Shown: positions 2,295-53,128, numbered from the stretch's first letter. The stretch: DNA of 64,000 nucleotides from an uncultured Bifidobacteriaceae bacterium (GCA_964639075.1 CAZXCB010000001.1:9602-73601), one strand, 5' to 3'. The notes: generated from the letters alone by a model not told the origin. A program made the numbers and translations.

Positions 2295-2408
2295 CCCGGG
2301 ATGATCGACGCGAGACCGGTGCGCGCACAACCGCCGCGAGACCTCCGGTCCTCGGCCCGGACGGTCCGGCCTGCGAGCATCGGGGCCGGAGCATCCGGGA
2401 GGGTCCAC

Positions 2409-15715: not shown

Positions 15716-18016
15716 TCAGTCCTCGTCGAACACCGTGACGGTGCCGGTCGGCCGGGCCAGCGCGAGCGCGCTCGCGCTGTCGAGCACGACGGTGAGCCCC
15801 TCGGCTCCCTCGATCGACGTGTCACCGTTGACGACGACGGTGATGACACCCGTCCGCTTGCCGGCGACGATGTTCAGGGTTCCCGTCTTGCCCGTGTAGT
15901 CGCCGTCGTTGGTCGCGGTCCCGTTCACCGTGTGGTACCTGACGACCGTCGTCGTCGCCTGACTCGCCGACAGCGTCACGGTGAGGGTCACCGACTTCGC
16001 GCCGGTGTCGCCCTCGATCACCGACGTGTCGCCGATCGAAGCGCCGAGCGCGGGGGCGGTGTCGTCGTCGACGATCTTGCCGATCGCGGTGTCACGGTCG
16101 GTCGGGACGCCGGAGGTCCCCGTGCCGGTGACCTCGAGCTTGAACGTCTCGGTCCCCTCGGGCGTGATGTCGCCCTTGACGGGGATCGAGATCTTGGCGG
16201 TCACGGCACCCGCGGCGATGGAGGTCGTCGCGGTCTTGGCGGTGTAGTCGGACCCCGCGGCCGCGGTACGGGCGACGGTCTGGTACTGCACCGGCGTGCT
16301 CGTCGCGCTCGGAGCTGAGAGCGTGACGGTGAACACGGCGTTCTGCGTGCCACCGTTGCCCTCGACGAGCGTGGCGTCTCCGACCGAGATCGACGGAGTG
16401 ACGGCGGTGTCGTCGTCGAGCACGGTCGCGCTCGCCTGGGTCGTCCCTTGCGCGGCGCCGTTCACCGAGTTGACCGACAGGCCCAGCGTCTCGTCGCCCT
16501 CGACCGTCGCGTCACCCGCGACGACGACCGAGACGGTCGCCGACGTCTTGCCGGCACCGATCGAGACGGTTCCCGCCTTGGCCGTGTAGTCCGAACCCGC
16601 CGTCGCGGTTCCGGCGACGGTGGAATAGGACACCGTCGTCGTCGACAGGCGGGCGGCCGAGAGCACGACGCCGAACTTCAGGGTGTGAGTCGTCCCCGCC
16701 TTGCCCTCGTACGTCGACGCATCGGCCACGTAGACCGTGGTCGCGTCGGGCATGAAGGTCGCGGTCACGCCGGTCAGGCCGTTCGTGGTCACGTCACACG
16801 TGGAGGACGAGCCGGTGCACGCTCCGGACCAGCCCTGGAGGTGGTAGCCCGGGTTCGGGCTCGCGGTCAGGTGCACGACCGTCCCCCCGTCCACCGCGGT
16901 GAAGCACGTGGACCCGCAGTCGATCTCGCCCGGGTTCGCGTTCGCGGTTGCGCTGCTCGACACGGTGCCACCGTCGGTCGACACGCCCGGACCGGTCTTG
17001 ACGGTCACGTTCAGGGTCGCCCGGTTGACACCGGTGCCCAGGTTCGCGGCGACCATCTGCCGAGCGATCATCGTGCCGACGAAGTTGTTGCAGTTGTCCG
17101 GGTCACCGGGGGTCTCGTTGCACGTGATCGAGTTGTCGACCGGGTCGACGGGTCCCGTGTACCGGTACGTCTCGGTGACCGTCACGCTCGCCTGGTCGCC
17201 CGGATCGATCGGGTCGTCGGGCTCGGTCTCGGTCCCCTGGTTCGTGCCCGGGTCGGGCTGGAAGAGCTCGGCGACGGAGGAGATCTGCGAGTTCGCGATC
17301 GCGCTCTGGACCTCGGGATCCGTCGCGAGGAGCTGGTTCACGTCGACCGGGTTCGGGCTCGACGCCTGGTACTTCACCACCCAGACCGCGTCCGGGAACT
17401 GTGGTTCGGACGGTTCGGGCACGACGGCCGGCGCGATCTCCGCGCGGACGACCTCCCCGGTCGGCGTCGCCACCACCCGCGGCACCACCGCGGCGACACC
17501 CGGCTGGACGAAGTAGTTGCCGGTCGTGGTCCCGCCGTACGGCGTCAGCACGCCGGTCGAGCCCGCCGACGAGCCGCCGAGGTCGCAGAGCCAGGAGTAC
17601 CGCTGCGCCCCCACCGAGCCGTTGACGTGGACGCCGAAGTGGTTGACGCTGCCGATCGGCGTCCTCGCGCTCCACGCGCCGTTGACGTAGTTGGCCGAGT
17701 AGCGCACGACCACGCCGGAGTGTCCGTTCGGGAAGGTCGTGTTCACGGCGGGCTTGGCGGAGCCGTACGGGTTGCCCGGCCACGTGTAGCTGATCTGGGA
17801 GTCGGTGATGTCCTCGATCTCGACCTCGAACCCCTCGCACTCCTTGTCGGTCCCGTTCGCGACGTCGAAGTTCGTGGCGTACCCGAGGATCGTCGGTGAC
17901 GAGGCGTGCGCCGCGCGCTCCGCGAACCCGATCAGCCCGCCGCACACGGCGATCGCGGCGAGCGTGATGCGCAGGACGCGGCGCGCCGGAGCGACCGGCG
18001 AGAAGCAGGCGAGCAT
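15716..18016 (-). CDS. Secreted protein: unknown N-terminal module, Cys-bounded InlB-B-repeat-like domain, three Calx-beta domains
   Basis: ORF 15716..18064, ATG at 18014-18016 giving a signal peptide (...FAERAAHA). GWSGACTGSSSTCDV repeat. Three units of type GSDYTAK...I.V.GD...EG.E.F, each ending in DDD/DED. Confidence 0.85.
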   Translation of the reverse strand: MLACFSPVAPARRVLRITLAAIAVCGGLIGFAERAAHASSPTILGYATNFDVANGTDKECEGFEVEIEDITDSQISYTWPGNPYGSAKPAVNTTFPNGHSGVVVRYSANYVNGAWSARTPIGSVNHFGVHVNGSVGAQRYSWLCDLGGSSAGSTGVLTPYGGTTTGNYFVQPGVAAVVPRVVATPTGEVVRAEIAPAVVPEPSEPQFPDAVWVVKYQASSPNPVDVNQLLATDPEVQSAIANSQISSVAELFQPDPGTNQGTETEPDDPIDPGDQASVTVTETYRYTGPVDPVDNSITCNETPGDPDNCNNFVGTMIARQMVAANLGTGVNRATLNVTVKTGPGVSTDGGTVSSSATANANPGEIDCGSTCFTAVDGGTVVHLTASPNPGYHLQGWSGACTGSSSTCDVTTNGLTGVTATFMPDATTVYVADASTYEGKAGTTHTLKFGVVLSAARLSTTTVSYSTVAGTATAGSDYTAKAGTVSIGAGKTSATVSVVVAGDATVEGDETLGLSVNSVNGAAQGTTQASATVLDDDTAVTPSISVGDATLVEGNGGTQNAVFTVTLSAPSATSTPVQYQTVARTAAAGSDYTAKTATTSIAAGAVTAKISIPVKGDITPEGTETFKLEVTGTGTSGVPTDRDTAIGKIVDDDTAPALGASIGDTSVIEGDTGAKSVTLTVTLSASQATTTVVRYHTVNGTATNDGDYTGKTGTLNIVAGKRTGVITVVVNGDTSIEGAEGLTVVLDSASALALARPTGTVTVFDED

Positions 18017-18136
18017 GTGAGACCCCCAGACGGCACCCGATGAACCGAGCGAATCGTCCACCACCGCATCACAAGGGAACCTCCCGACTCGGCAAGCATT
18101 CGGCCAAGTCGGCGCCGCGCGATCCCGGTCCGACGC

Positions 18137-26364: not shown

Positions 26365-26370
26365 GACACT

Positions 26371-26388: not shown

Positions 26389-26781
26389 AGGCGACAAGGT
26401 CGACGGGGACATGAATCCCGAGCGGTGGCGAGGCGTCTTCCCTAAGAAGGGATGAACGGGGCCGACTCTACCAGCGATCCACGCCGTGACCGGTTCGCGA
26501 TCATTGCGACGCGTGGTCGGTCCGGTGCAGGTGACATCCGAGCCGAGCGAAGGGCAGCAGCGGTGAGTCCTTGGGCACCGACGCGCGTCCGGACCGGCAC
26601 CGGAACCGCGGCGAGCTCGCCAAGCCGATCCAGGGCGCGGCGCGATCGTCGTGGCAACATCGCGCATCTCGCGAAGTGGGCCAACCGACCTACGCGCGGG
26701 CGGAGAGCGATCCACCCTGACTCCTTCGGCGGCGGCGGGGTGCCGGTATCGTCCCGCCGGCGCCGACGGAGGGAAGCGGGC

Positions 26782-29727
26782 ATGAGGCAGGGGATCGTTC
26801 GTGGTCTGGCGGTCGGCGCGCTCCTCGCCCTCGCGCCGGCGTCACCCGCGGTGGGTGGCACCCTGGCTGCCGGCCGCGGCGCCGACCGCAACGCCCCCAG
26901 CAGCTCGGCCTCACGCGCACCGGCGACACCCTGGACGCGCGCGGCCTGGGATGACGCGGTCAAGTCGGCACCGAGGGCCGACACGGGCTCGGTCCGGTCC
27001 GGAGGGACGACGTCGGTGACGGCGGCCGCGGCTCCGGCGCTCGCCGTCACGCCCGACACGAACCTGGTGCGCGGCCAGGTCGTCTCGGTGACCGGCTCGG
27101 ACCTCGGCAGCGGTCAGATCGTGCTCGTGCAATGCCCGGTCGACGTCGCCCCGGCGTACTTCTGCGACTACCGGAGCGCCGCGGTCGTCACGCCCGACGC
27201 GTCGGGCTCCATCGCCGCGAGCTTCACCGTCCACCGCGTCATCGAGAGTCCCGTCGGTCGCGTCGACTGCGCGAGCGCTCCCGGCACGTGTGATCTCGTC
27301 GCCGCCAGTCTCGGCGCCGCGATCCTGGCGCGCCACGCGCTCGCGTTCGACCCGACCGCGCCCCCGCCGGACTCGAGGATCACCGTGACCCCGTCGACCG
27401 GCCTGCTCGGCAACCAGAGCGTGACCGTGGCCGGGAGCGGATTCCTCCCCGCCGACCAGGTCTGGGTCCGCGAGTGCGCGGTCGTCGACGCGGAGTGCCA
27501 GGGGTCCTTCCTCCAGGTCATCACCGATGCGGCCGGGGCCTTCTCGACGCCGCTGACCGTTCGGCTGCGTGTGAACGACGCCACCGGCACCACCACGCAC
27601 TGCCTCGCGGTCGACTGCATCGTGCGGGCGTCGAGCCACACGGATCTCGAGTTCGAGGCCAGCGCGCCCATCACCTTCGATCCGGGTCAGCCGCCACCCT
27701 CGCTGCCGTCGATCACCGTCACGCCGTCGACCGGCCTGCTCCACGACCAGACGGTGACGATCACCGGAACCGGGTTCGACCCCGCGGAGTACGTCGACAT
27801 CACCGAGTGCATCGCCACCGACCCGTACTGCTACGAGTACCTGGTGGGCGCCGAGCCCGACGCGGCCGGCAGCTTCACCGCCACCGCCCCTGTGACCCGA
27901 CTCGTCGCCGGCTACTCCCCCGGTGGCCTGGACGTCGTCGACTGCGCCCTCACGCCGTGTCGCATCACCGCGACCGGCTACACGAACGAGGACACCCTGG
28001 CGTTGCGGGCGAGCGCGCCCGTCTCCTTCGACGGCTCGGTCGCGCCGCCGGTCCCGCCCGCGGTGACCGTCACCCCCTCCACGAACCTGCCCTATCGCGC
28101 CGACGTCACGGTGCGCGGCACCGGCTACCGCCCGGGCTCCCCGATCTACGCGGACTACTGCGGCGGGTCGATGGAGACCGGCGGCTGCGCGTCCTACGCG
28201 GAGGGCACGGCCGACGCGTCGGGCACGGTCGAGCTCACCCTCACGGTCAAGCGCCGGATCTTCACGGGCGGCGTCGATCCGATCGACTGCGTCGAGGTGG
28301 GGACCACCTGCTCCGTGAACGTCTCCGGTGCGCGCGGCTACGAGCGCGCGCAGATCGACGTGTCGTTCGACCCGAACGCACCGATCCCTCCGTCACCGGT
28401 CGCGACCGTCACCCCCGATCACGACCTCGGGTACCGCCAGACGTTGGCCGTCACCGGGTCCGGCTTCGCCCCGGGCAGCGTGCCGGTGCAGCAATGCGGT
28501 CGCGTCGACCTCGGATTCGACTCGTTCGAGATCTGCGCCGGGTTCACCGAGCTCCAGGCCGGCGCAGACGGGGCCGTCTCGGGGACGGTCGAGGTGCGCC
28601 GATTCCCCTCGTTCTTCCCCGGTGAGTCGCTCGACTGCGCGACGAGCGCGACGCCGTGCACGCTCCGGATCGGATCCGGCGACCCGGACGAATCGGCGAT
28701 CGTGCCGCTCGCGTTCGACCCGAGCTCACAACCGCCGCCGCCGCCGGTCGTCACGGTCTCCCCGCGCACCCACCTGCACGACGGCCAGGAGGTGACCGCG
28801 CGTGGCAGCCGCTTCGGGGCCGGCGCCCTGCTCGGGCTGGCCCAGTGCCGGGCCGGCGTGACCCAGATCGCCGACGGGTGCGACATCTCCCACGCGAGCG
28901 TGGCCGTCACCGACGCCGCAGGCGCGTTCACGGCCACCCGGACGGTGGCCGGTGTGATCGGGACCTCCCAGGGACCGGTCGACTGCACCGTCGCCGGCGC
29001 GTGCGTCCTCGCGGTCGCCAACGCCGGCGAGCTCAGCGAGCTCGCGGTGGCCCCCCTGCAGATCGACGCGCCCACACTGGCGGTGCACGACGCCACGGTG
29101 ATGGAGGGCACCGGCGAGGACATGCACACCGAGGTCATGGTCGAGCTGTCGGCGCCGACCACCACGCCGTTGACCGTCGAATGGCAGGCGGCCGCCGCGA
29201 CCGCCGGCGACCAGGACTTCGCGCCGCGGCGGGGCCGCGTCACCATCCCGGCCGGGGCGGCCGAGGCGATGATCCCGCTCCACGTCGTCGGTGACCGGCT
29301 CGACGAGACGACCGAGCACTTCACGGTGGAGGTCACGCGGGCACTGGGCACGCGCGTCACCGACCGTCGCGCCACGGTCACGATCACCGACGACGACCGG
29401 GCGCCGAGCGTGTCGGTCCGCGACGGCCGGCGTCGCGAGGACCACGGCGAAGCCCACGCCGAGGTGCTGCTGTCCGCGCCCAGCGGCCAGACCGTGATCG
29501 TGCACTACGTGACCCACCACGGTACGGCCCGGGCCGGCTCCGACTACGTGCGCAAGGACAGCCGGCTCGTGTTCCTCCCGGGCGAGACCCGGCACCTGGT
29601 CCGCATCCTGCTGGTCGACGACCACGCGCACGAGCCCACGGAGTGGTTCCGCGTCGAGCTCGACCGGGCCGAGCACGCGCACCCGGCGGACGCCGTCGGC
29701 ATCGTGACCGTCACCGACGACGACTGA
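26782..29727 (+). CDS. Secreted protein: six tandem neocarzinostatin-fold-like four-Cys repeats plus two Calx-beta domains (981 aa)
   Basis: In frame within ORF 26452..29727. ATG at 26782 is preceded by GGAGGGA. Signal peptide MRQGIVRGLAVGALLALAPASPAVGG. Six ~105-aa repeats start with VTVTPSTxL...V.V.G.GF, each carrying C..C and DC....C pairs. The C-terminal Calx-beta pair ends in VTVTDDD. Confidence 0.85.
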   Translation: MRQGIVRGLAVGALLALAPASPAVGGTLAAGRGADRNAPSSSASRAPATPWTRAAWDDAVKSAPRADTGSVRSGGTTSVTAAAAPALAVTPDTNLVRGQVVSVTGSDLGSGQIVLVQCPVDVAPAYFCDYRSAAVVTPDASGSIAASFTVHRVIESPVGRVDCASAPGTCDLVAASLGAAILARHALAFDPTAPPPDSRITVTPSTGLLGNQSVTVAGSGFLPADQVWVRECAVVDAECQGSFLQVITDAAGAFSTPLTVRLRVNDATGTTTHCLAVDCIVRASSHTDLEFEASAPITFDPGQPPPSLPSITVTPSTGLLHDQTVTITGTGFDPAEYVDITECIATDPYCYEYLVGAEPDAAGSFTATAPVTRLVAGYSPGGLDVVDCALTPCRITATGYTNEDTLALRASAPVSFDGSVAPPVPPAVTVTPSTNLPYRADVTVRGTGYRPGSPIYADYCGGSMETGGCASYAEGTADASGTVELTLTVKRRIFTGGVDPIDCVEVGTTCSVNVSGARGYERAQIDVSFDPNAPIPPSPVATVTPDHDLGYRQTLAVTGSGFAPGSVPVQQCGRVDLGFDSFEICAGFTELQAGADGAVSGTVEVRRFPSFFPGESLDCATSATPCTLRIGSGDPDESAIVPLAFDPSSQPPPPPVVTVSPRTHLHDGQEVTARGSRFGAGALLGLAQCRAGVTQIADGCDISHASVAVTDAAGAFTATRTVAGVIGTSQGPVDCTVAGACVLAVANAGELSELAVAPLQIDAPTLAVHDATVMEGTGEDMHTEVMVELSAPTTTPLTVEWQAAAATAGDQDFAPRRGRVTIPAGAAEAMIPLHVVGDRLDETTEHFTVEVTRALGTRVTDRRATVTITDDDRAPSVSVRDGRRREDHGEAHAEVLLSAPSGQTVIVHYVTHHGTARAGSDYVRKDSRLVFLPGETRHLVRILLVDDHAHEPTEWFRVELDRAEHAHPADAVGIVTVTDDD

Positions 29728-29763
29728 ATCGAGCGCGCCCCGCGCGGCCTCGACCGGCGCGTC

Positions 29764-30525: not shown

Positions 30526-30620
30526 GCCGGACCCCCCGCTCGACGGTCGAAGGTACACCGGCGCCGGCCCCGGGCCAAGGGGAACCAGCCCCGGGGTCCG
30601 GGCGGCCCGGGACACAACGC

Positions 30621-32387
30621 CTAGGCCGGATCGGTGAAGGCGAGGTCGGCGACGGTGACGCTGCCGGACGCAGTCGGTCCGGCGACGAGCGCGACCGACC
30701 GGATCGCGTGCAGGTCCACCCCCGCGAACGCGCTGAGTGGGATCCGGACGGTCGCGTCGTAGAGCTTCGGCACCGAGAACGACGTCGTCGCGCCGGGCGG
30801 GTACCGCAGGGCCGGGCTGAAGCTCGCGATCGGCGCGAACGCGCGGCGACCCGCCGCGTCTTGCAGCCGCACGAACGCGTCCTGGCGCAGCCCGAGCAGG
30901 TTCAGCGGATTCGTGAACACGAGGCCGGCCCGCAACGTGAGCGCGCGGTAGCGCGCGACGTCACCCTTGGCCGCCGGGATGTCGAACTCGGCCCGCGCGC
31001 CGGGATCCGTCCACGTCAGTCGCAGCTGCGACAGACCGAGCGCCTGCGGCGCGAGGAAGCTGAACGACGAGTGCGGTTCCTGCTCGCCGCCGAAGGAATC
31101 GTTCGAGAGGCAGAACGGGTACGGGAACGTCGCGCCGCACATCGCGACCTCCGAGAACCCGGTGAAGTGCACGTTCCCACCCGCGGTGTCGCGCAGCAAC
31201 GCACTGCCGCTACGCATCCGGGCGACGTCGAGACGGGCTGTGCGTGACGCACCCGCGTGGTACGACACCGAGACGTCGGAGTGCGCGATGCGCGTGAGCG
31301 ACGGTGGACGCGCCGCCGAACCGTCGAGATACGGATCGAGCGCCTGCTCGCCACCGAGGTAGCGCCGGAAGAAGGTCGCGAAGACGATCGCACCGACCGC
31401 ACGTTGCCCGGCGGCGTCGAGCCGCCCGGTGCTCGGCACTCCCGGTCCGCAGAACGGCTCCTCGGGGTCCCACCAGTCGTCGCCGCCGCCGGGATACGGC
31501 GGCGTCCAGGCGGAGTTGAAGAAGTTGTGGTCGGCGCCGTAGACGAGCACCGCGTGCTTCGGCGCGCTGTCGGTCGAGTCGGTGTAGCGGGCGTCGTCGT
31601 AGAAGTGGATGCCCTGGAGGTCCGACACGTCGCCGTCGCAGTACGGCAGCACCACCTCGAGCGCCACGCGGTTGAGGACCACACGCGAGAAGTCGGTCGG
31701 CGCCAACGCGATCACGGCCCGGATCGAGTACGGCGAGCCGAACGCCTGGTTCAACGCCGCCGCCGCCACGACTCCCTCGCCACCCCGGCTGTGGCCCATC
31801 AGGCCGATGTTGCCCAGGTCGACGTGGCCGGCGAACTTCGTCCCGAACGGCGCACCGCCGGTGGTCTCCCACCTCCGCCAGAGATCGAGGTGGTGGAGCA
31901 CGAGCTGACCCCGTGCGTTCGCGCCGAGGTCGGCCGCGGCGTCGTCGTTGTAGTTGATCGAGTTCGCGCTGATCGACGCGACGATGTAGCCGCGGGACGC
32001 GAGCAGGGTCGCGGCGTCGGCGTAGCCGCGGTGGCTCGCGATCGGGACCCGCCCGGGGCCGCACGGCCACTCGAAGTACGGCACCCGGGTCGCCGGGTCG
32101 AAGCAGGTCAGATGCCGACCGTGCAGGAAGACCACCAACGGGAACGTCCCGTTCAGCGCGCGCGGGTAGTACACCCGGGCACGCACCTCGACCGGCGCCG
32201 GGAACCCGTTCGGCGTGAACGCGGTGTCGCCGAAGCCGTAGTCGGCGACGCCCACCGGGTACGCGCCCGCGAGCCCGGGATCCGGCGGTGACGCGGCCGG
32301 CGCCGCCGCGGTGGTGCCGAGCGCGCCGACGAGGCCGACGACGACGGCGACCGCGATCACCACGCGCCGGAGCCGCGCGCCGCTCAC
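30621..32387 (-). CDS. Secreted alpha/beta hydrolase (lipase/PAF-acetylhydrolase/cutinase-like) with C-terminal beta-rich domain
   Basis: C-terminal 588 codons of ORF 30621..34940. GTG at 32385-32387 overlaps the upstream stop (GTGA). Signal peptide present, nucleophile elbow GLMGHSRGGEG. Confidence 0.8.
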   Translation of the reverse strand: MSGARLRRVVIAVAVVVGLVGALGTTAAAPAASPPDPGLAGAYPVGVADYGFGDTAFTPNGFPAPVEVRARVYYPRALNGTFPLVVFLHGRHLTCFDPATRVPYFEWPCGPGRVPIASHRGYADAATLLASRGYIVASISANSINYNDDAAADLGANARGQLVLHHLDLWRRWETTGGAPFGTKFAGHVDLGNIGLMGHSRGGEGVVAAAALNQAFGSPYSIRAVIALAPTDFSRVVLNRVALEVVLPYCDGDVSDLQGIHFYDDARYTDSTDSAPKHAVLVYGADHNFFNSAWTPPYPGGGDDWWDPEEPFCGPGVPSTGRLDAAGQRAVGAIVFATFFRRYLGGEQALDPYLDGSAARPPSLTRIAHSDVSVSYHAGASRTARLDVARMRSGSALLRDTAGGNVHFTGFSEVAMCGATFPYPFCLSNDSFGGEQEPHSSFSFLAPQALGLSQLRLTWTDPGARAEFDIPAAKGDVARYRALTLRAGLVFTNPLNLLGLRQDAFVRLQDAAGRRAFAPIASFSPALRYPPGATTSFSVPKLYDATVRIPLSAFAGVDLHAIRSVALVAGPTASGSVTVADLAFTDPA

Positions 32388-32869
32388 CCCACCACCACCG
32401 CGATCGTCCGGGCACCGGACTGCGGGCCGTTCTCGCCGTAGCTCCAGGTGACCTGCGCGCCGACGCGCAGCCACGACCGGTCGAAGCTGACCGTCGACGC
32501 CGCGGAGAGGTCGGGGCTCGGACGCGCCCGTCCGATGACGCGACCGTCGACGCGCACGACGATCGGCATGGCCCGCACCGCGAACGGTCCCCCGTGCAGC
32601 GTGAGTCGCAGCGGTGCCGTGGACGCGCCCTCCGACGGCGCCGGCGCCTCGACCGCTTCGACGGAGACGCCGTCGCCGGTGGCGACGACCGCGCCGGGCG
32701 CCGCGAGACCCTCGGTGGTCCGCTGCGCCTGCGCCGCGTCGGGAGGTGGAGGGACGCGGTCGCCGATCGGCCCGCCCGGGTCGTCGTTCGCACCCGCGGT
32801 CGCGAGCCCGACCGTCACGAGCACCGCCGCGACCACCCCGATCCCCGTCGCCAGCACGCTGCGTCGCAT
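32384..32869 (-). CDS. Small secreted hypothetical protein
   Basis: ORF 32384..32947. ATG at 32867-32869 is preceded by GGGGGAGGG. Signal-like N-terminus MRRSVLATGIGVVAAVLVTVGLATAGA. Coupled to the hydrolase gene. Confidence 0.55.
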   Translation of the reverse strand: MRRSVLATGIGVVAAVLVTVGLATAGANDDPGGPIGDRVPPPPDAAQAQRTTEGLAAPGAVVATGDGVSVEAVEAPAPSEGASTAPLRLTLHGGPFAVRAMPIVVRVDGRVIGRARPSPDLSAASTVSFDRSWLRVGAQVTWSYGENGPQSGARTIAVVVG

Positions 32870-32974
32870 CGGCCCTCCCCCGAACCGATCGGGGCCTGCC
32901 ACCCTCGACTGGTCGCCCACTCGGATCGCCGAGGTTGGCAGCCGCACCGCCGCCGCGCAAGACGGCCGCGCGGC

Positions 32975-34609
32975 TCAGGCCGTCGAGACGGCCTCGGATG
33001 GAGGTGCGGCAGGCCGCATCGGGAGCCCGCGGCTGAAGAACAGCGCGACGAGCGCGAGCACGGCGAGCACCGACAAGGAGGCGCGGAGTCCGTCGATGCG
33101 CGCCTGCGCGTTCTCGTCGACGATCTCGGCCGCGGTCTCGTCGCTCACCCCCGCGTCCACCAACGCGGCCTCGAGGTCGGCGTCGGAGACGAACGGCACG
33201 CCGCTCTCGAGCTGCACCTGCGCCTGCGAGCTGAGGTCGTCGGGGACGGCCGGGTTGCTCTCGATGCCGGTGAAGAACGACGCCGTCAGCGCGGACATCA
33301 GGACCGCGCCCGCGAGCGCGGTGCCGATCGAGATGCCCAGGTTGGATGCCGTGTTCTGGAGCCCGCCCACCTCGCCGCTCTGCTCGTCGGAGACCGACGA
33401 GACCGTGACCGCCCCGAGCTGTGACGCCAACGCGCCGATGCCGAGACCGGCCAGGAGCATCGGCCACGTGGTGATCTCCGGCCCGGCCCCGATGTCGAGC
33501 AGGGCGACGAAGACGACCAGGCCGAGGAACAACCCGGTGAAGCCGATCTGGGACACCCGCCGCGGCGAGGCCTGCGGGAACAGCTTCGGGACCCCGACCG
33601 CGGCGATCACGAGGGTCACCGACAAGGGCAGGAGCCGCACGCCCGTGTCGATCGCGCTGAGGCCGAGGGCGATGGACAGGAACAGCGGCACCGCGAAGAA
33701 CAGTCCGGCCTGGAGCAGGTACTGGAAGAAGAACGCGACCAGACCGGCGCGGAGCAGCGCCACGCGCAGGATCGCCGGGTCGAGCAGCGCGGGCTTGCCG
33801 GCGTCGCGGCGGTGCTGCTCCCACGCGAGGAACCCGAGCAGCACTGCGCCGCCGCCGAGCAGGAGCCAGATCACGGGCGAGACGCCCAACCACGTCGGCG
33901 CGCCGGACTTGGGCTGCACGAAGCCCCACGTACCCGAGCGCAGGATGCCGTAGACGATCAGGCCCAGCCCGAGCGCGGAGAGTGCCGTGCCGACGAGGTC
34001 GAGGCGCGCGCCCTCTTCCTTCGGCGTGTCGGCCGTGCGCCGGTTCAGCAGGAGGACCACGCCGATGATGAGGACCTCGCCCACGAACACGTAGCGCCAC
34101 GACCAGTACGTGGTGAACAGCCCACCGATCAGCGGGCCGACCCCGACCGCGATCGCACCGCCGACGGCGACGAGCCCGTAGGCCTTGGGGCGCGCGGGCG
34201 TGTCGAAGTTCGACGCGACCAGTGCCACGATCGCCGGGAGCACGAGCGCCGCGCCGGTGCCCTCGAGGAACGACCAGCCGAACAGCATGACCGGGAGGTT
34301 CGGCGAGATCGCCGTGATGAACGATCCGCACCCGTAGATCACACAGCCGATCGCGAACGCGCGCTTGCGACCGAGGATCTGACCCATCCGCCCGCCCGTG
34401 ATCATCAACGATGCCATCACCAACGTGTACAGCGTGATCGCGGTCTGGATGCCGGTCACCGTCGTCCCGAGGTCCTTGGCGACCGTCGCGATCGACACGT
34501 TCATGACCGACGAGTCCAGGATCATCACGAACTGGGCCGACGCGAGCGTCAGCAGCACGAGCCTGGCCGCGGCGCTCGGGCCGGCGGTCGTTGCATTCGT
34601 GTCGGTCAA
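32975..34609 (-). CDS. MFS transporter, DHA2 (14-TM) family
   Basis: ORF 32975..34702. Proposed TTG start at 34607-34609 lies 5 nt after GGAGG. MILDSSVMNVSIATVAKDLG and GGRMGQILGRKRAF motifs. Confidence 0.85.
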   Translation of the reverse strand: MTDTNATTAGPSAAARLVLLTLASAQFVMILDSSVMNVSIATVAKDLGTTVTGIQTAITLYTLVMASLMITGGRMGQILGRKRAFAIGCVIYGCGSFITAISPNLPVMLFGWSFLEGTGAALVLPAIVALVASNFDTPARPKAYGLVAVGGAIAVGVGPLIGGLFTTYWSWRYVFVGEVLIIGVVLLLNRRTADTPKEEGARLDLVGTALSALGLGLIVYGILRSGTWGFVQPKSGAPTWLGVSPVIWLLLGGGAVLLGFLAWEQHRRDAGKPALLDPAILRVALLRAGLVAFFFQYLLQAGLFFAVPLFLSIALGLSAIDTGVRLLPLSVTLVIAAVGVPKLFPQASPRRVSQIGFTGLFLGLVVFVALLDIGAGPEITTWPMLLAGLGIGALASQLGAVTVSSVSDEQSGEVGGLQNTASNLGISIGTALAGAVLMSALTASFFTGIESNPAVPDDLSSQAQVQLESGVPFVSDADLEAALVDAGVSDETAAEIVDENAQARIDGLRASLSVLAVLALVALFFSRGLPMRPAAPPSEAVSTA

Positions 34610-34731
34610 GCGGGCCTCCGCGGGCCGGGTTCGGAGCGTCGCCCTGGGTGGCGGCCGGCACACAGTACGCGCGGGCCCGCGCCGGCGGCGGCCGCAGTAC
34701 ATTGCCCACTCCGGTCACCGAGGGGGCACGT

Positions 34732-36234
34732 GTGAGCAGCGACATCAGCCGGCGCGACATCCTCCGCTGGTCATTGCTCGGCGGCGCCGCGATCCCGATG
34801 ACGTCGCTGCTGGCCGCGTGCGGCGGCGACGGCACGTCCTCGGCCACTCGGCGCCAGCCAGTTCCCGGCGGTCCGACCACGACCTCCGTCTCCGGAACGA
34901 CCGACGCGTGGTGGCTGCAGGGGAACTTCGCCCCCGTCACCCGGGAGGTGGAGGCGTTCGACCTCGAGGTGGTCGCGGGGGCGATCCCGCCGACGTTGCG
35001 CGGCCTCTACGTGCGCAACGGCTCGAATCCCCAGTCGGGCGACTCGACGCACTGGTTCTTCGGCGACGGCATGGTGCACGGCGTCAAGCTCGAGGACGGC
35101 ACGGCCGCGTGGTACCGCAACCGCTACGTGCGCACCGCGTTGTACGAGTCGAGGACCGGTTTCGGTGAGGGTCCTCCCGGCGGCGCGGCGAACCAGTCGA
35201 ACGTCTCGGCGATCTGGCACGGGGGTCGACTGCTCACCAGCGGCGAGGTCGGCCTGCCGTTCGAGCTGTCGACCGCGGATCTCGGCACGATCGGCACCCA
35301 CGACTTCGGCGGTCGCCTCACCACCGCGTTCACCGCCCACCCGAAGGTGGATCCGGCGACCGGTCGGCTCCACTTCTTCGGCTACGGGTTCACGCCGCCC
35401 TACCTCACGTACCACGTTGCTGCGCCCGACGGCACGTTGGTCTCGAGCACCGAGGTGCCCGTCGGCGCGTCCACGATGATCCACGACTTCACGATCACCG
35501 AGACCGACGCCGTGTTCTGGGAGCTCCCGGTGCTGTTCGACCTCGAGGCCGCGACCAGGTGGATCCGGGACAAGAGCTCCGGCGTCTTCCCGTACCGGTG
35601 GGCACCCGAGTACGGCGCACGCATCGGTGTGATGCCGCTCGACGGGCCCGGGACCGCGATCCGATGGTTCGACATCGACCCGTGCTACGTGTTCCACGGC
35701 GTGAACGCGCATCGCTCCGGGGACGACGTCGTGCTCGACGTGTGCCGGCTCTCCTCGATGTTCGCGCCGAACCAGCGGCTCGGCGGCGACCTGAGCCTCC
35801 GGCGATGGACGGTCGACACCGTGCGGGGCTCCGTGCGCGACGAGGTCGTCGACGCCGACCGACCGGGTGAGCTCCCGTCACGGGACCCGCGCCGCGTCGG
35901 GCGCAAGCAGCGCTACGGCTACTTCGTGCAGACGCGCGACAACCCCGACACCGTGGACCTCGGTGGCCTGGTCAAGCGCGACTACCGCACCGGCCGGGTC
36001 GAGACCTGGGACCCGGGGCCGTCGGGGCACACCGGCGAGTGGCTCTTCGTCCCCGACGGCAGCTCGGCGGACGAGGACGCCGGCTACCTGCTCACCTTCC
36101 TCTACGACGACACCCGCCGTACGAGCCAGCTCGTGATCGTGGACGCGACCGACGTCCGCGCGGGCCCCGTCGCGCGCATCGCGATCCCCCAGCGGGTCCC
36201 CTATGGCTTCCACGCCACGTGGGTCGAGGCCTGA
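34732..36234 (+). CDS. Carotenoid-cleavage-oxygenase (RPE65/lignostilbene dioxygenase) family enzyme with Tat signal and lipobox
   Basis: In frame within ORF 34591..36234. GTG at 34732 is preceded by GAGGGGG. SRRDILRWSLLGGAA...SLLAA/CGG. Four His-containing blocks: TAHPKVDP, MIHDFTITE, YVFHGVNA, PYGFHATW. Confidence 0.85.
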   Translation: MSSDISRRDILRWSLLGGAAIPMTSLLAACGGDGTSSATRRQPVPGGPTTTSVSGTTDAWWLQGNFAPVTREVEAFDLEVVAGAIPPTLRGLYVRNGSNPQSGDSTHWFFGDGMVHGVKLEDGTAAWYRNRYVRTALYESRTGFGEGPPGGAANQSNVSAIWHGGRLLTSGEVGLPFELSTADLGTIGTHDFGGRLTTAFTAHPKVDPATGRLHFFGYGFTPPYLTYHVAAPDGTLVSSTEVPVGASTMIHDFTITETDAVFWELPVLFDLEAATRWIRDKSSGVFPYRWAPEYGARIGVMPLDGPGTAIRWFDIDPCYVFHGVNAHRSGDDVVLDVCRLSSMFAPNQRLGGDLSLRRWTVDTVRGSVRDEVVDADRPGELPSRDPRRVGRKQRYGYFVQTRDNPDTVDLGGLVKRDYRTGRVETWDPGPSGHTGEWLFVPDGSSADEDAGYLLTFLYDDTRRTSQLVIVDATDVRAGPVARIAIPQRVPYGFHATWVEA

Positions 36235-39295: not shown

Positions 39296-40402
39296 CTGCG
39301 CCGCACGCGCGCGGCCGAGACCCGCGAGCGCATCGTCTCGGCCGGCGCCGAGCTCCTTCACGGGTTCCCCGTCTGGAACTGGTGCGCGCTGACCGTGGGT
39401 CGCGTCGCCGAGCGGGCCGACGTGAACCAACGGACGATCTACTGCCACTTCGCGGGCGAACGCGAGTTGCGAGACGCGGTGTTCGCCCGGCTCGAGGAGG
39501 AAGCCGGTGTGGACCTCGAGGGGCTCACGCTCGAGGAGCTCACCGCGTTCACGGCTCGCGTGCTCGGGTTCGTGTCGTCGTTCCCACTCGAGTCGCGCGC
39601 ACCGCGGGACGAGACTCTCGTCGTCGCCCATCGTCGCCAGCGCGACGCACTGCTCGCGGCGGCGACGCCGGCCGTGGCGGAGTGGTCCGACGCCGACCGC
39701 ACGACCGCGGCGGCGATGCTGGACGTCCTGTGGAGCGTCGTCTCCTACGAGCGCCTGGTGGCCGACTGGGACCTCTCGCCGCGGCAGGCCATCGAGGCGG
39801 TCACGTGGGTCATCGGCTTGGTCGAGGACACGATCCGTACGACCGGCGACCCCGTCGCTGAACCGCTCCCGCGGGTTCACGCCTCCTGCACTCGTGCCCG
39901 GACCGGCTCGATGCGGACCATCGTCCGCTTGTACTCGGGCGTGTTCGTCACCCGGTCTCGGTACGGCCCGGTGAGCCGGTTCACGTGCGATTCCGGATCG
40001 CTGAACGTCGCGAAGACCTCGCCGGCGCGCACGGCTGCGCTCACCCGGATCGGCAGCACCGTCGTGCCGTGGCGGCTCGTGACCTCGACCAGGTGGCCGT
40101 CGCCGACGCCGAGCCGGGCGGCGTCGGGAGCGGCGATGTCGAGCGTGTCGGTCGTCCGCAGCTCGTTCGTGAGGGATCGGCGCGTCATGGTGCCGGCGTT
40201 GAACTGGTCGAGGGCGCGCCCGGTGACGAGCAGGAACGGGAACCCGGGATCGGATCGCTCGGGACTCGGCTCGTACGCGATCGGATGGAGCATCGCCGGA
40301 CCGCCGCGCGTGAACGCGGCGGTGTGCAGGATCGTGGTGCCCGGATGGTCCTCGGTCGGGCACGGCCATTGCAGCCCGCCGGGAGCGTCGAGCCGGCCGT
40401 AG
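39296..40402 (+). CDS. TetR/AcrR-family regulator, probably disrupted (in-frame TAG upstream, no stop at the expected C-terminus)
   Basis: The HTH (RERIVSAGAELLHGFPVWNWCALTVGRVAERADVNQRTIYCHF) begins upstream of the first canonical start (GTG 39395). The only in-frame candidate start is CTG 39296. GTG 39248 is in frame but is followed by TAG at 39284-39286. The recognisable TetR fold ends near 39880, yet the frame stays open to 40402, antisense to the FDH gene. Confidence 0.5.
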   Translation: MRRTRAAETRERIVSAGAELLHGFPVWNWCALTVGRVAERADVNQRTIYCHFAGERELRDAVFARLEEEAGVDLEGLTLEELTAFTARVLGFVSSFPLESRAPRDETLVVAHRRQRDALLAAATPAVAEWSDADRTTAAAMLDVLWSVVSYERLVADWDLSPRQAIEAVTWVIGLVEDTIRTTGDPVAEPLPRVHASCTRARTGSMRTIVRLYSGVFVTRSRYGPVSRFTCDSGSLNVAKTSPARTAALTRIGSTVVPWRLVTSTRWPSPTPSRAASGAAMSSVSVVRSSFVRDRRVMVPALNWSRARPVTSRNGNPGSDRSGLGSYAIGWSIAGPPRVNAAVCRIVVPGWSSVGHGHCSPPGASSRP

Positions 40403-42558
40403 CTCATGCCGGCTCCCACGGGCCAGACCGCTCGGATCTCGTCCCAGATCGCGGCCGGCTCCGCGAAGTCGAACTGAGCACCGTGACCCATCGCGTGGGC
40501 GACCGCGCGCACGATCTCCCAGTCGGGGCGCGAACCTCCGAGCGGTTCGATGACCTTGCGGACCCGCTGCACGCGCCGCTCCCCGTTCATGAACGTGCCG
40601 TCCTTCTCGAAGGTCGAGCAGGCGGGGAGGAAGACGGTGGCGTGCTCCCTCGCGGTCTCGTTGAGGAAGAGGTCCTGCACGACGAGCGTGTCGAGCTGCG
40701 CGAGCGCACGGTCGGTCGCGGTCGCGTTCGGTTGGGTCTGGAGGATGTCCCAGCCGACGACCCAGAGCGCGTGCACGGCTCCGGCCGACGCGGCGTCGAG
40801 CATCTGCACGGCGTCGAGACCAGCCGCGTCCGGGAGGGCCGCGCCCCACACGTCTGCGAACCAGGGCGCGTCACCGACCGGCGCGAAGCCGGTGACGAAG
40901 TCGGGTTCGCAGCCCATGTGGGCGCAACCCTGGACGTTGTTCTGCCCGCGCAAGGGGTTCACTCCGCTGCCGGGGCGGCCGACGTTGCCGGTGAGCAGCG
41001 CCAGGTTCGCGAGGCAGACGACCGCGTCCGTGCCCTGGGTGTGCTCGGTGACCCCGAGGCCGTGCAGGATCATCGACGGCGTCTGCGTCGCGTACAGCCG
41101 GGCGGCTGCGCGCATGCTGGCAGCGTCGACGCCGCACGCGTCGGCGACGAGCTCGGGACGGTACGCGCGGAGGAAGGTCGCGCAGCCGTCGAGGTTCTCG
41201 ACCCGGGTCGCCAGGAAGTCCGCGTCGACGAGCGACTCCTCGACGATCGTGGCGGCGATCGCGTTCAGCACCAGCACGTTCGTGCCCGGCTCCGGCCGGA
41301 GATGCACCGTCGCGTCGTCGGCGAGCTCGATCCGGCGCGGATCGATCACGATCAAGGAGGTGCCGCGCCGCGCGGCCTGCCTGATCCGCGCCCCCAGGAC
41401 CGGGTGGTTCTCGGTGGCGTTCGCGCCGACCACCATGATCGTCCGCGCGTGCTCGATGTCCGCGAAGGAGTTGGTCGCGGCGCCGGTTCCGAACGCGAGT
41501 CGGAGCCCCGCGGCGCTCGGCGCGTGACAGACCCGCGCACAGCAGTCGACGTTGTTCGTGCCGAGCACCAAGCGGGCGAACTTCTGGAGCAGGTAGTTGT
41601 CCTCGTTCGTCGCGCGCGCCGAGCCGAAGACGCCGACCCCGGCCGGTCCCCACCGTTCGAGGGCGCGGCGGAAGCCGTCCGCCACCGCGACGGTCGCCTC
41701 GTCCCACGACACCGCGCGCCAGCCGTCACCGTCCCGGACCATCGGTTCGGTCACCCGCTCGTCGGAATGGACGAACCCGTGCCCGTACCGTCCCTTCACG
41801 CAGGCATGGCCACGGTTGACGGGCGCGTCGGGCGCCGGGACGGCCGTGACGACGTGGTCGTCGCGAGTGCCGATGAGGAGCTCGCAGCCCACCCCGCAGT
41901 ATGGGCACGTCGTGCGCGTCCAACGGTCCGGCGGGCCGCCGATCAGCACGGGTCGGTCCTCGAGCGCGCCCGTCGGGCAGGTGTCCACGCAGGCGCCGCA
42001 CGAGACGCACGCGCTCTCCCGCAGGGTGGACGCGCCGCTCGGCACCACGTGGGTGTCCGTCCCCCGCCCGACGATCTGCCAGGCGCGCTGGCCCTGCACC
42101 TCGTCGCAGATCCGGACGCACCGGAAGCAGTCGATGCACCGATTCATGTCGATCACGATGCACGGATGGGTGTCGTCGCGCAGCTCGGGCCGACCGGCCC
42201 CACCGGTCGCCGACACGTCGTGGTCGACGAGCAACCGGTGGAATCGCTCGTCCGGTGCCGCCGCCACCGCGTCCGCGGGGTAGCGAAGCGCCATCATCGT
42301 GAGCAGGCCGCGGCGCGCCGATTCGGCATCGTCCGGCGCGGTCTCGATCACCATGCCCGGTGTGGCCAGCACCGCGCACGAGGCGACCAGCTGCGGCCGG
42401 CCGTCGACGCGCACCAGGCACATCCGACATTCTCCGTACGGCTCGAGCCGGTCGTCGTCGCACAACGACGGCAGGTCGACCCCGAGCGCGCGCAGCCCGT
42501 GCAGAATCGAGACGCCGTCGGGGACCTCGGCATCCACACCGTCGACCGTCACGCGCAT
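39877..42558 (-). CDS. Formate dehydrogenase alpha subunit-like molybdopterin oxidoreductase (N-terminal 2Fe-2S and 4Fe-4S domains; Cys type)
   Basis: ORF 39877..42558. Cys clusters: 2Fe-2S (C..C...C), CIDCFRCVRIC, CVSCGACVDTCP, CPYCGVGC. Active-site block NNVDCCARVCHAPS has Cys in the Sec position. Confidence 0.9.
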   Translation of the reverse strand: MRVTVDGVDAEVPDGVSILHGLRALGVDLPSLCDDDRLEPYGECRMCLVRVDGRPQLVASCAVLATPGMVIETAPDDAESARRGLLTMMALRYPADAVAAAPDERFHRLLVDHDVSATGGAGRPELRDDTHPCIVIDMNRCIDCFRCVRICDEVQGQRAWQIVGRGTDTHVVPSGASTLRESACVSCGACVDTCPTGALEDRPVLIGGPPDRWTRTTCPYCGVGCELLIGTRDDHVVTAVPAPDAPVNRGHACVKGRYGHGFVHSDERVTEPMVRDGDGWRAVSWDEATVAVADGFRRALERWGPAGVGVFGSARATNEDNYLLQKFARLVLGTNNVDCCARVCHAPSAAGLRLAFGTGAATNSFADIEHARTIMVVGANATENHPVLGARIRQAARRGTSLIVIDPRRIELADDATVHLRPEPGTNVLVLNAIAATIVEESLVDADFLATRVENLDGCATFLRAYRPELVADACGVDAASMRAAARLYATQTPSMILHGLGVTEHTQGTDAVVCLANLALLTGNVGRPGSGVNPLRGQNNVQGCAHMGCEPDFVTGFAPVGDAPWFADVWGAALPDAAGLDAVQMLDAASAGAVHALWVVGWDILQTQPNATATDRALAQLDTLVVQDLFLNETAREHATVFLPACSTFEKDGTFMNGERRVQRVRKVIEPLGGSRPDWEIVRAVAHAMGHGAQFDFAEPAAIWDEIRAVWPVGAGMSYGRLDAPGGLQWPCPTEDHPGTTILHTAAFTRGGPAMLHPIAYEPSPERSDPGFPFLLVTGRALDQFNAGTMTRRSLTNELRTTDTLDIAAPDAARLGVGDGHLVEVTSRHGTTVLPIRVSAAVRAGEVFATFSDPESHVNRLTGPYRDRVTNTPEYKRTMVRIEPVRARVQEA

Positions 42559-51207: not shown

Positions 51208-52986
51208 TCAGGTGTCGTCGTTCATGACCCGCACCGTGCCGATGCCGTCGCGGACACCGGCACCGGTGACGGTGACCGTGAACGTCTCCGCGGAGAAGGC
51301 CCCGTTCTCGTCGGTGTTGTCGCCGAAGACCGTCACCAGGAGCGCGAGGCTCGTCTTCCCGGCCCTGAGCGTCTTGACCTTGGCGATCGTCACGGGCAGG
51401 AAGTCGTCGCCGACGGTCTTGCCGTTGACGGCCGTCGCGCCCTTGAAGACGCCGACGACATCCGAGCCGTTCGTGATCGTGTAGGTGAGCGCCGTGTCGA
51501 GCAGGACCGGACTCGACGCCTGGATCGGGATGACGGCAGTGCCCTTGCACCGCAACGCACCACCGCAGGCGACGGCTTCTCCCGTCTCGTAGACCGTCGC
51601 GTCGCCGACGGAGATCCCGGTGTCGGGCTCGATCGTGTCATCGTCGTCGACGATCGTGACCATCCCGACATCGTCGTTGGCGACGAGCCCACTCGACACG
51701 CTGACGACCTGGACGATGATCGTCTCGGTCGACTCCGCGCTCTGGTCGGGAGTGATCGGGATGGTGAACTTGGCAGTGCTCTTGCCGGCCAGGATCTTGA
51801 GGACCTTCGGCTTCGTCGCAGGCGTGTGCTTGTAGTCCGACGCCGTCGGGACGGTCTCGGTGCCCTTCAGGGTGCCGTTGGCCGATCCGCCCGTCGTGTT
51901 GTCGGCGATGACCGTCACCGTGGAGTCGACCACAGCCGGCTGGCTCAGTGAGACGACGACGCTCGCCGAGCTCTTGCAGTCGATGCCGGCGCAACCGTGC
52001 GCGCCGAGGCCGCCGTCGCCCTCGTGGACGGTGACGTCACCGACGTTGACGTCGATGCCCGACTGATCCGCATAGTCGTGGGTCGACGTGATGAACGCCC
52101 ATTGCGAGGTGCTGTTGTCGACCGACGCCGTACCGAAGACGAAGAAGTTGAAGAAGCCGCACCGCGTGTCCGGCGAGGTCAGGGGCACGGCGTCGAAGAC
52201 GTCGCCGAACAGCAGCACCGGCTTCGCGTTCTTGCCGGCCATCGGGTTGGCGACGGTCGGGTCCTGGACCTTGGTGAGGCTGCCCGGAGCGGTGTCACCG
52301 CTGAGCGAGGCGTTCGTCGACGTGACGTCGGCCGCGCACTGGACCGGTGTCGGCCCACCCCACGGATCCATGCCCCCGGCACCGTCGAAGTCGAACACGA
52401 CCCAGCTCTGGCCGGCGGTGAGGTCGGTGTCGCACCGGATGTCGAGCGTCGTGTCGAGTCGCAGCCGCATGGTGAGCGTGCCCGCGTTGAGGTTGCCCGT
52501 GTGCGCCCCGAGGTCGCTGAATGCCGTCGTCACCTTCGCCACGAGCAGGTCGTCGTCGCAGACGCCCGCGGTCGGCGACGCCGATGCCCGCACGAACTCG
52601 AACGGCGTGAACGACGACGACACCGAGAAGTTCGTCGCGCCGTCGATCGTTCCGGTGAACTCGATCGGGTCCGGAGCCTGGAAGCCCGCGGTGGTCTCGT
52701 CGTCGTCGTAGATGCTCGTGCAGGCCGGGTCGGACCCGAAGTCGACCAGACCGTCGGGGGCGCCGAACGGCGCCAGGAACTCGTTGTCGGCGCCGTCCTG
52801 GCATTGCGTCGACGCGCCGCCGAGCGACGAGCTCTGCTGGCTCCCGAAGCCGAATGCGCCGCCGACGAGGGACATCTGGAACGCCGCCGCGTGGGCCGCC
52901 GGTGCCGCAGCGATCGAAGCCCCGGCCAGGAGGGCGAGCGTGGCGCCGAGGCCGGCGACGCGTCGGCCGATACGTCCGTTCACCAT
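51208..52986 (-). CDS. Secreted protein: unknown N-terminal module plus two Calx-beta-like domains
   Basis: ORF 51208..53022. ATG at 52984-52986 is preceded by GGGGGAGGG. Signal peptide ends ...AAPAAHA. The C-terminal domains end in VTIVDDDD and VRVMNDDT. Confidence 0.8.
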   Translation of the reverse strand: MVNGRIGRRVAGLGATLALLAGASIAAAPAAHAAAFQMSLVGGAFGFGSQQSSSLGGASTQCQDGADNEFLAPFGAPDGLVDFGSDPACTSIYDDDETTAGFQAPDPIEFTGTIDGATNFSVSSSFTPFEFVRASASPTAGVCDDDLLVAKVTTAFSDLGAHTGNLNAGTLTMRLRLDTTLDIRCDTDLTAGQSWVVFDFDGAGGMDPWGGPTPVQCAADVTSTNASLSGDTAPGSLTKVQDPTVANPMAGKNAKPVLLFGDVFDAVPLTSPDTRCGFFNFFVFGTASVDNSTSQWAFITSTHDYADQSGIDVNVGDVTVHEGDGGLGAHGCAGIDCKSSASVVVSLSQPAVVDSTVTVIADNTTGGSANGTLKGTETVPTASDYKHTPATKPKVLKILAGKSTAKFTIPITPDQSAESTETIIVQVVSVSSGLVANDDVGMVTIVDDDDTIEPDTGISVGDATVYETGEAVACGGALRCKGTAVIPIQASSPVLLDTALTYTITNGSDVVGVFKGATAVNGKTVGDDFLPVTIAKVKTLRAGKTSLALLVTVFGDNTDENGAFSAETFTVTVTGAGVRDGIGTVRVMNDDT

Positions 52987-53128
52987 AACGAGCCCTCCCC
53001 CAGGGTCGGTCAGCGACCCCATGTAAGCATCTCGACACGGTCGCGCGCCCGCGTGAGCCGAGATCGTGCGCTTCTCGGCGTCCTCGAGGGCGTGACCGAG
53101 GCCGTCGCCGTCCGTCGGATGCGGGCGG

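Follow-up and report, generated by a model that had tools for sequence, protein, structure and literature searches.

The neocarzinostatin family is usually viewed as a handful of single-domain carriers of enediynes. Its described members, neocarzinostatin (NCS), macromomycin/auromomycin, the C-1027 apoprotein CagA, actinoxanthin and kedarcidin, are encoded in enediyne polyketide synthase (PKS) clusters and possess a glycine-floored cleft walled by a long hairpin. The very stable NCS scaffold is already in use for protein engineering. Here we describe a gene that shows another use of this disulfide-braced fold, namely as a module repeated within large secreted proteins of little-known Acidimicrobiia. 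It lies on a 64,000-nucleotide stretch of DNA from an uncultured Bifidobacteriaceae bacterium (GCA_964639075.1 CAZXCB010000001.1:9602-73601), hereafter the window, and encodes one chain of 981 amino acids (aa) in which six NCS-fold repeats (R1 to R6) are followed by two Calx-beta domains. We favour the reading, to which we give about an even chance of being right, that this protein is a Sec-exported extracellular stalk or adhesin, with its domains on proline-rich linkers and a Ca2+-stiffened C-terminal Calx-beta head, and not an enediyne carrier.

Bacterial immunoglobulin (Ig)-like repeat adhesins and stalk proteins are beta-sandwich beads on a string. Together with cadherin-type rods they resemble the present protein in this arrangement of modules, in Ca2+-dependent stiffening and in extracellular location, the latter two being predicted here; they differ in that the modules of the present protein have the NCS fold with two disulfides each, its predicted Ca2+ sites are confined to the C-terminal tandem and it has no known anchor. 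Two consecutive Calx-beta domains are also found in the CBD1-CBD2 pair of NCX1 and Drosophila CALX (3us9, 3rb5), which is rigidified by Ca2+ occupancy and was likened by the authors to cadherins, whence the analogy with Ca2+-rigidified rods that we adopt below (PMC3386913). In the literature searched, no study of tandem NCS repeats or of proteins combining NCS and Calx-beta domains was found, and the only mention of an NCS-like domain outside enediyne biology concerns CwpG of Actinoplanes missouriensis, an SrtE sortase-dependent cell-wall protein with an IPR002186 neocarzinostatin-like domain (PMC13251363). Like the present protein, CwpG places such a domain in an actinobacterial cell-surface protein outside an enediyne context; it has one NCS-like domain, for which the passage on CwpG gives no function, and a sortase anchor (PMC13251363), whereas here there are six, together with Calx-beta domains and no sorting signal.

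The component domains, and the label 'neocarzinostatin apoprotein domain-containing protein' from automated annotation, are already known, and the locus is no new kind of system. What is under-appreciated is that the NCS fold occurs mostly as a tandem extracellular module in uncultured Actinomycetota, with a shortened hairpin and a non-glycine cleft floor.

Fold and domain organisation

Scanned separately, each of the six repeats passes the Pfam neocarzinostatin model PF00960, with 29.3-49.0 bits against a gathering threshold of 25. A profile built from 91 repeats of this protein and its homologues matches holo-neocarzinostatin (1nco) over its full length with E 1e-18, followed by macromomycin, the C-1027 apoprotein, kedarcidin and actinoxanthin. 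One repeat, R2, was modelled with AlphaFold2 (AF2; pLDDT 95.9, pTM 0.88). When this model is compared with the PDB by Foldseek, the first 14 places are taken by chains of enediyne apoproteins or of engineered NCS (TMq 0.64-0.85, identity 23-34%, E 5e-7 to 9e-5), and a sharp gap separates them from generic Ig-like accessory domains, which appear at E of 5e-3 or above and TM of about 0.5. The cysteines of the repeats occupy the positions of C37, C47, C88 and C93 in NCS: among 927 full-length repeats from 203 proteins the C37, C47 and C93 columns are 99-100% Cys, C88 is aligned in the profile alignment, and 99.4% of the repeats have exactly four cysteines. Both disulfide positions (C37-C47 and C88-C93) are thereby common to the repeats and the enediyne apoproteins, as are a length of about 105-110 aa and N-terminal 'TVTPSxGL...V.V.G.G' strands. 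An earlier note on this DNA had proposed the NCS fold from the spacing of two cysteine pairs in each repeat, and this assignment to family and fold is correct and specific. That note had also considered the opposite outcome, a different Ig-like family with no ligand pocket; the first half of it does not hold, whereas with regard to the second no conserved pocket is apparent from the sequences. A generic bacterial Ig domain (Big/TIG) was tried and rejected, TIG reaching only 14-18 bits, below its threshold.

Within the encompassing open reading frame (ORF) listed in Table 1, Met1 of the 981-aa protein coincides with the start positions of its orthologues. Third-position GC (GC3) in this frame is 0.91, in a window that is evenly about 72% G+C, and an identical protein is present in the NCBI collection (P0001); no context entry is on record for it, and the names of its cluster members were uninformative. 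A promoter and terminator scan of positions 26200-30900 found nothing, and Rfam detected no RNA family in the whole window. The protein begins with a signal-peptide-like segment, MRQGIVRGLAVGALLALAPASPAVGG, in which Arg2 and Arg7 form part of the n-region, a hydrophobic core of about 13 residues follows and Ala-x-Ala-type sites can be seen by eye. The signal peptide proposed in the earlier note is accordingly plausible by inspection and its pattern is kept in the orthologues; the putative leader would be cleaved upon export; the 24 cysteines, exactly four per repeat, and the extracellular-type domains are consistent with export. Next comes a low-complexity segment (aa 27-85), which is the least conserved part of the protein (mean top-residue fraction 0.34) and probably a disordered tether.

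The six repeats of about 105 aa open with (L/I/V/A)(A/T/V)V(T/S)P, and each contains a V-x-V-x-G-x-G-(F/Y/L) motif. They are joined by five proline-rich linkers (DPTAPPPDSR, DPGQPPPSLPS, DGSVAPPVPPA, DPNAPIPPSPVA and DPSSQPPPPPV), while the junction between R6 and the first Calx-beta domain is short ('DAPT') and not proline-rich. Number, length, cysteine content, linkers and location of the repeats are all as the earlier note had described them. Identity among R1-R6 is 26-40% and Tandem Repeats Finder detects no DNA-level repeat at the domain period, which indicates that the duplications are ancient. When the repeats of 28 orthologues are compared, 168 out of 168 best matches in another protein fall at the same ordinal position, with identities of about 45-50% between repeats at the same position and 31-36% between those at different positions. 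The six-domain array must therefore be older than the divergence of these lineages, each position being under its own constraint. R4, for instance, has the position-specific invariant residues N435-L436-P437-Y438-R439-A440, R491 and E521. Such individual conservation argues that the repeats are more than spacers of a given length, although it does not indicate what is recognised.

The two C-terminal Calx-beta domains named in the earlier note are confirmed by PF03160 (34.8 and 63.0 bits; threshold 27); together with the PF00960 scores of the repeats, such values greatly exceed what chance would give. The last 210 aa can be aligned, both domains together, with Drosophila CALX CBD12 (3rb5; query 772-963 to residues 20-213) and also with NCX1 CBD1/CBD2 (3us9), and phmmer matches to NCX1/CALX CBDs in the PDB reach E 1e-14. 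The Ca2+ ligands of NCX1 CBD1 are E385, D421, D446, D447, I449, E451, E454 and D498-D500 (PMC3386913). In Calx-beta 1 and Calx-beta 2, respectively, E385 corresponds to E775 and E886, D421 to D812 and D921, D447 to D838 and D947, E451 to E842 and E951, E454 to E845 and E954, and D498-D500 to D870-D872 and D979-D981; the D446 equivalent is D946 in Calx-beta 2, which has the complete CBD1-type acidic set, and the non-acidic G837 in Calx-beta 1. Nearly all of these equivalents are invariant in 13 orthologues, from which Ca2+ binding and Ca2+-dependent stiffening of the predicted head are inferred on good grounds. The NCX and CALX tandems share with the present one the CBD1-type ligand set and a 'DDD' ending each domain. 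They belong to an intracellular regulatory loop of a membrane transporter, however, whereas here the tandem is the C-terminal end of a predicted secreted bacterial protein and the second DDD its very C-terminus. The interdomain R532 of NCX1 is not clearly conserved, the aligned residue being Gly with an Arg one position later in the orthologue consensus. Elsewhere in the window, a second large Calx-beta protein (Table 1), of secreted type and in keeping with the stalk or adhesin reading, combines three Calx-beta domains (112 bits) with a divergent InlB B-repeat (Flg_new_2) domain, which suggests that the organism encodes several Ca2+-dependent surface proteins.

Cleft residues and enediyne genes

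NCBIfam NF040680, whose cutoff is 86 bits, is the equivalog model named 'enediyne antibiotic chromoprotein'. NCS itself, used as positive control, scores 136.1 bits, and R1 to R6 score 54.8, 69.8, 69.4, 58.2, 37.2 and 54.6 bits, all below the cutoff. The whole protein nevertheless passes with 293 bits, only because six sub-threshold scores add up. This pass is an annotation trap: applied to whole proteins, the cutoff could mislabel tandem-repeat proteins as enediyne chromoproteins, and in genome mining neither an 'NCS apoprotein' domain nor an equivalog match by summed repeats is evidence for an enediyne producer.

Two features that shape the ligand cleft of the chromoproteins differ in the repeats. 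The spacing between the second and third cysteine has a median of 35 (interquartile range 35-37) in the 927 repeats, as opposed to 41-42 in three chromoproteins, and the profile alignment shows that the chromoproteins carry an insertion of 5-6 residues relative to the repeats ('flfdg' in NCS, 'avvgad' in macromomycin, 'stpeg' in C-1027). The insertion site is the hairpin carrying F76 and F78 of NCS, which is about 6 residues shorter here. The other feature is the floor of the cleft. In NCS, the cleft bottom is formed by V34, G35, Q36, L45, V95, G96 and V108, and F52 and the C37-C47 disulfide lie under the enediyne ring (PMC2694159); W39 and F52 contact the naphthoate (PMC5952040), and D33 and D99 are further cleft residues (PMC6100412). 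The engineered testosterone binder 2cbq differs from wild-type NCS at positions 33, 35, 37, 39, 45, 47 and 52. The equivalents of G35/G96 are V/V in R1, R/R in R2, T/T in R3, D/N in R4, Q/R in R5 and A/A in R6, and only 13% of the 927 repeats have Gly in the G96 column. Across the 28 orthologues, R2-R5 have polar and variable residues where the cleft would be faced, much as on any protein surface, whereas R1 and R6 have small ones there (G/A/V/L), with higher conservation. In R6 the small conserved residues on the cleft side are G685, A687, A744 and A746, and its loop between the first two cysteines, 'GVTSIADxCD', is highly conserved. The small cleft side of R1 and R6 could, from its sequence, be either a retained groove or an interdomain packing face.

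No biosynthetic context for an enediyne was detected, as the earlier note had also observed. Ketosynthase and acyltransferase (KS/AT) signatures are missing from all six frames of the window and KS/AT motifs from 280 kb around 19 homologous loci, and no PKS domain was found in 20 neighbouring or large ORFs of the window that were scanned. An enediyne self-resistance or carrier gene was rejected as an explanation since there is no PKS and the equivalog score is sub-threshold. Taken together, several independent tests speak against the repeats being enediyne-type ligand binders or offer no evidence for it.

Family, predicted role and alternatives

Among clusters formed at 50% identity, the repeat profile matches 5,674 when E <= 1e-3 is required, 2,651 at E <= 1e-10 and 661 at E <= 1e-30, and the best 150 clusters all have 3-10 repeats. 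With thousands of clusters from the profile search and few known chromoproteins, the use as a tandem module is numerically dominant, and the many repeat variants constitute a natural library for engineering on the NCS scaffold. The architecture of six NCS repeats and two Calx-beta domains is kept in about 30 clusters at 37-63% identity; two variants have eight repeats. A scan of one genome per species recovered 19 homologous loci, entitled Acidimicrobiia in 17 cases, Actinomycetota in one and Bifidobacteriaceae in one (L009); all are from metagenome-assembled genomes (MAGs) of Acidimicrobiia or other Actinomycetota. The window itself thus probably derives from an Acidimicrobiia genome. Some MAGs contain two paralogues (for example JBKJIQ01 with L001 and L012, JANYLF01 with L002 and L010), so the family has been duplicated within genomes. 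In a second, more distant paralogue group (L010, L012, L014 and L017; about 40% identity) the gene for six NCS repeats and Calx-beta lies beside a Trp-tRNA synthetase-like gene instead of the lipoprotein gene described below. This neighbour was identified only by its class-I HLGN and KMSKS motifs, and a functional meaning was rejected, its adjacency probably reflecting shared descent among related genomes.

Partner domains were counted in 40 family members with substantial extra sequence. BD-FAE occurs in 12 of them, Calx-beta in 11, Abhydrolase_3 and COesterase in 10 each, Peptidase_S9 in three, RTX repeats and PKD in two each, and a beta-lactamase fold, Big_9, LysM and TIG in one each. This repertoire is typical of secreted and surface proteins, by which the NCS repeat appears to be a general extracellular module. 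The fusions to esterases and peptidases (P0064, P0076 and P0084 among them; 12/40) likewise come from uncultured Actinomycetota/Acidimicrobiia and have the same repeat family, 'FDP...P' proline-rich linkers and four cysteines per repeat; they differ in carrying two to four or more repeats and a catalytic alpha/beta-hydrolase where the present protein has its Calx-beta tandem.

In the favoured reading, the two disulfides of each of the six NCS-fold domains, 12 in total, would form after export and lock the domains, while short conserved linkers of polyproline type ('FDPxxPxPPxP') would hold them apart, the whole making a semi-rigid rod tens of nanometres long. The Calx-beta tandem would take up several Ca2+ ions through its invariant Asp/Glu clusters and thereby become ordered and stiffened, as in the NCX CBD12 tandem and cadherins. 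This end would then make contact with the cell envelope, a matrix polymer or another protein, or anchor the molecule there, in dependence on Ca2+. The protein may in this sense be part of the envelope or of the adhesion apparatus in a soil lineage that is abundant and for the most part uncultured. The earlier note had offered a multivalent small-molecule-binding protein and an adhesin as alternatives. The adhesin or surface half fits better; the ligand-binding half is not supported, the cleft features not being kept, the equivalog cutoff failed and the same repeats found on secreted esterases and peptidases.

Several observations sit less comfortably with a stalk. Pure spacers usually vary in copy number or become homogenised, whereas the six repeats are distinct and individually conserved, and the position-specific polar and aromatic residues (R4 N435-A440, R491 and E521) hint at specific binding surfaces. 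The small, conserved cleft sides of R1 and R6 might mean that a groove persists there. Moreover, no LPXTG-type sorting signal or C-terminal transmembrane segment is recognisable, and the protein ends in '...VTVTDDD*' directly after the second Calx-beta domain. A sortase substrate was for its part rejected because a C-terminal sorting signal with a hydrophobic tail is not present.

The position-specific surface residues and the enzyme fusions would also suit an array that binds polymers or surfaces in the manner of a carbohydrate-binding module (CBM). The repeats would then attach to something insoluble, for instance a polymer of plant or microbial origin, a cell wall or a hydrophobic surface; they would lend avidity to the present protein and, where fused to an esterase or peptidase, bring that enzyme to its substrate. 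In the 12 extended members mentioned above, BD-FAE/carboxylesterase domains are accompanied by four or more NCS repeats; three members have a fusion to Peptidase_S9 and one to a beta-lactamase-fold hydrolase. The second-tier Foldseek matches of R2, which are weak, fall on accessory beta-sandwiches from GH3 glucosidases and a carbohydrate acetylesterase. However, the fusion pattern is equally that of spacer Ig-like modules, the domain searches showed no resemblance to a defined CBM family, and the cleft positions display no evident conserved aromatic platform. We consider an array of this kind unlikely.

A partner for the protein is suggested by its only constant neighbour. The window and each of the 10 orthologue loci (L001-L009 and L013) have, directly downstream of the NCS gene, a convergent gene for a His/Trp/Cys-rich putative lipoprotein (Table 1), while the other flanking genes differ from locus to locus. 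Sequence searches of Pfam, NCBIfam and the PDB found no match to the lipoprotein. Residues H118, D171, W173, H174, H176, C180, C194, H212 and W214 are invariant, which suggests a metal site and a disulfide. An AF2 model (pLDDT 92.3) gave no match in a Foldseek search of the PDB (best E 0.33, TM <= 0.15), and the lipoprotein may, to go by this model, be a metal-binding surface protein of new fold; a cupin-like fold was rejected, as a G-x5-H-x-H string is present but Foldseek finds neither a cupin nor another match. The family numbers at least 125 clusters, and proteobacterial versions are fused to thrombospondin type 3 repeats.

Functional coupling between the two proteins is possible. It would take the form of a two-component surface complex, in which the His-rich lipoprotein is a membrane-tethered receptor or partner on which the Calx-beta head or the rod of repeats docks, and it partly overlaps with the stalk/adhesin model. 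The conserved adjacency, the lipobox with the invariant His/Asp/Cys residues and the Ca2+-binding nature of the thrombospondin type 3 repeats in the proteobacterial versions are in its favour. However, the two genes lie on opposite strands, which precludes co-transcription; the lipoprotein family extends far beyond the NCS group and has members with no NCS gene beside them (in Iamia sp. and two other MAGs, even at 66-72% identity); the more distant NCS paralogues have no lipoprotein neighbour; and the adjacency may simply have been inherited from a single ancestral gene order. As a complex of this type the system seems quite improbable. Somewhat more speculative again is a combination in which tandem NCS repeats would be a large class of extracellular recognition modules in uncultured Actinomycetota and more than spacers; the present protein would have six distinct binding surfaces, a groove lined by small residues in R1 and R6 and, together with the lipoprotein, would form a new cell-surface system dependent on Ca2+ and metal.

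Least probable, and in our view very unlikely, is a multivalent small-molecule binder or 'sponge' whose repeats keep a hydrophobic cleft and sequester a hydrophobic compound, enediyne-like or otherwise, for example to protect the cell from outside against toxins of neighbouring bacteria: both sequence and fold place the repeats firmly in the NCS family, the scaffold can take other ligands, as in the testosterone-binding variants 2cbq, 2cbo and 2cbt, and the cleft-side sheet of R1 and R6 has small residues that are fairly conserved, but every repeat scores below the equivalog cutoff and below NCS, the segment with the F76/F78 hairpin wall is shorter, the floor glycines are gone (the G96 equivalent being R, T, N and R in R2-R5), the R2-R5 cleft positions are polar and variable, and no PKS motif occurs in the window or the related loci.

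Feature coordinates and remaining genes

The coordinates of the NCS-repeat gene and its parts, and of the other genes mentioned, are collected in Table 1. The neighbours other than the lipoprotein gene are unrelated, encoding a periplasmic binding protein, an alanine-racemase-N-domain protein, a DUF1611 protein, an MFS transporter, an RPE65-type oxygenase and an SDR; the 20 window ORFs that were scanned are transporters, oxidoreductases and similar.

Table 1. Features of the NCS-repeat gene and of other genes in the window (positions counted from the first nucleotide of the window)
Feature	Position	Strand	Details
Encompassing ORF	26452..29727	+	Likely start ATG 26782
Shine-Dalgarno-like GGAGG	26768..26772	+	Direct read; 9 nt 5' of ATG 26782
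NCS-repeat/Calx-beta coding sequence, stop codon included	26782..29727	+	ORF list; GC3; orthologue start alignment
Signal-peptide-like N-terminus	26782..26859	+	Translation inspected; pattern kept in orthologue consensus
Ala/Ser/Arg/Pro-rich low-complexity segment, aa 27-85	26860..27036	+	No Pfam match
NCS-fold repeat R1, aa 86-192	27037..27357	+	Cys118/128/163/170; PF00960 47.5 bits
NCS-fold repeat R2, aa 198-302	27373..27687	+	Cys232/239/274/279; PF00960 44.5 bits; Foldseek TMq 0.84 to 1nco
NCS-fold repeat R3, aa 309-418	27706..28035	+	Cys343/350/388/393; PF00960 49.0 bits
NCS-fold repeat R4, aa 426-532	28057..28377	+	Cys460/469/503/510; PF00960 41.7 bits
NCS-fold repeat R5, aa 539-648	28396..28725	+	Cys572/585/619/626; PF00960 29.3 bits
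NCS-fold repeat R6, aa 655-763	28744..29070	+	Cys689/700/735/741; PF00960 35.9 bits
Calx-beta domain 1, aa 764-872	29071..29397	+	PF03160; CBD12 alignment; acidic cluster
Calx-beta domain 2, aa 873-981	29398..29724	+	PF03160; complete CBD1-type acidic set
Convergent gene, putative lipoprotein, 253 aa	29764..30525	-	Lipobox LTAC; 36 bp past NCS-gene stop codon
Second large Calx-beta protein	15716..18136	-	Three Calx-beta domains; Flg_new_2
RPE65/carotenoid-oxygenase family gene	34591..36234	+	381 bits
Formate-dehydrogenase-like molybdopterin oxidoreductase	39877..42558	-	Fused Fe-S domains
Unmatched ORF, 642 aa	1821..3746	+	Coding-like GC3; within 1821..3749
Unmatched ORF, 527 aa	31210..32793	-	Coding-like GC3; within 30621..32974
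Unmatched ORF, 412 aa	36329..37567	-	Coding-like GC3
Unmatched ORF, 647 aa	51211..53151	-	Coding-like GC3; within 51208..53151

The genes for the RPE65-type oxygenase and the molybdopterin oxidoreductase are not syntenic with the NCS gene elsewhere, save for weak RPE65 matches in L005 and L009. The four ORFs entered as unmatched have no Pfam or NCBIfam match and are uncharacterised proteins typical of a poorly studied lineage.

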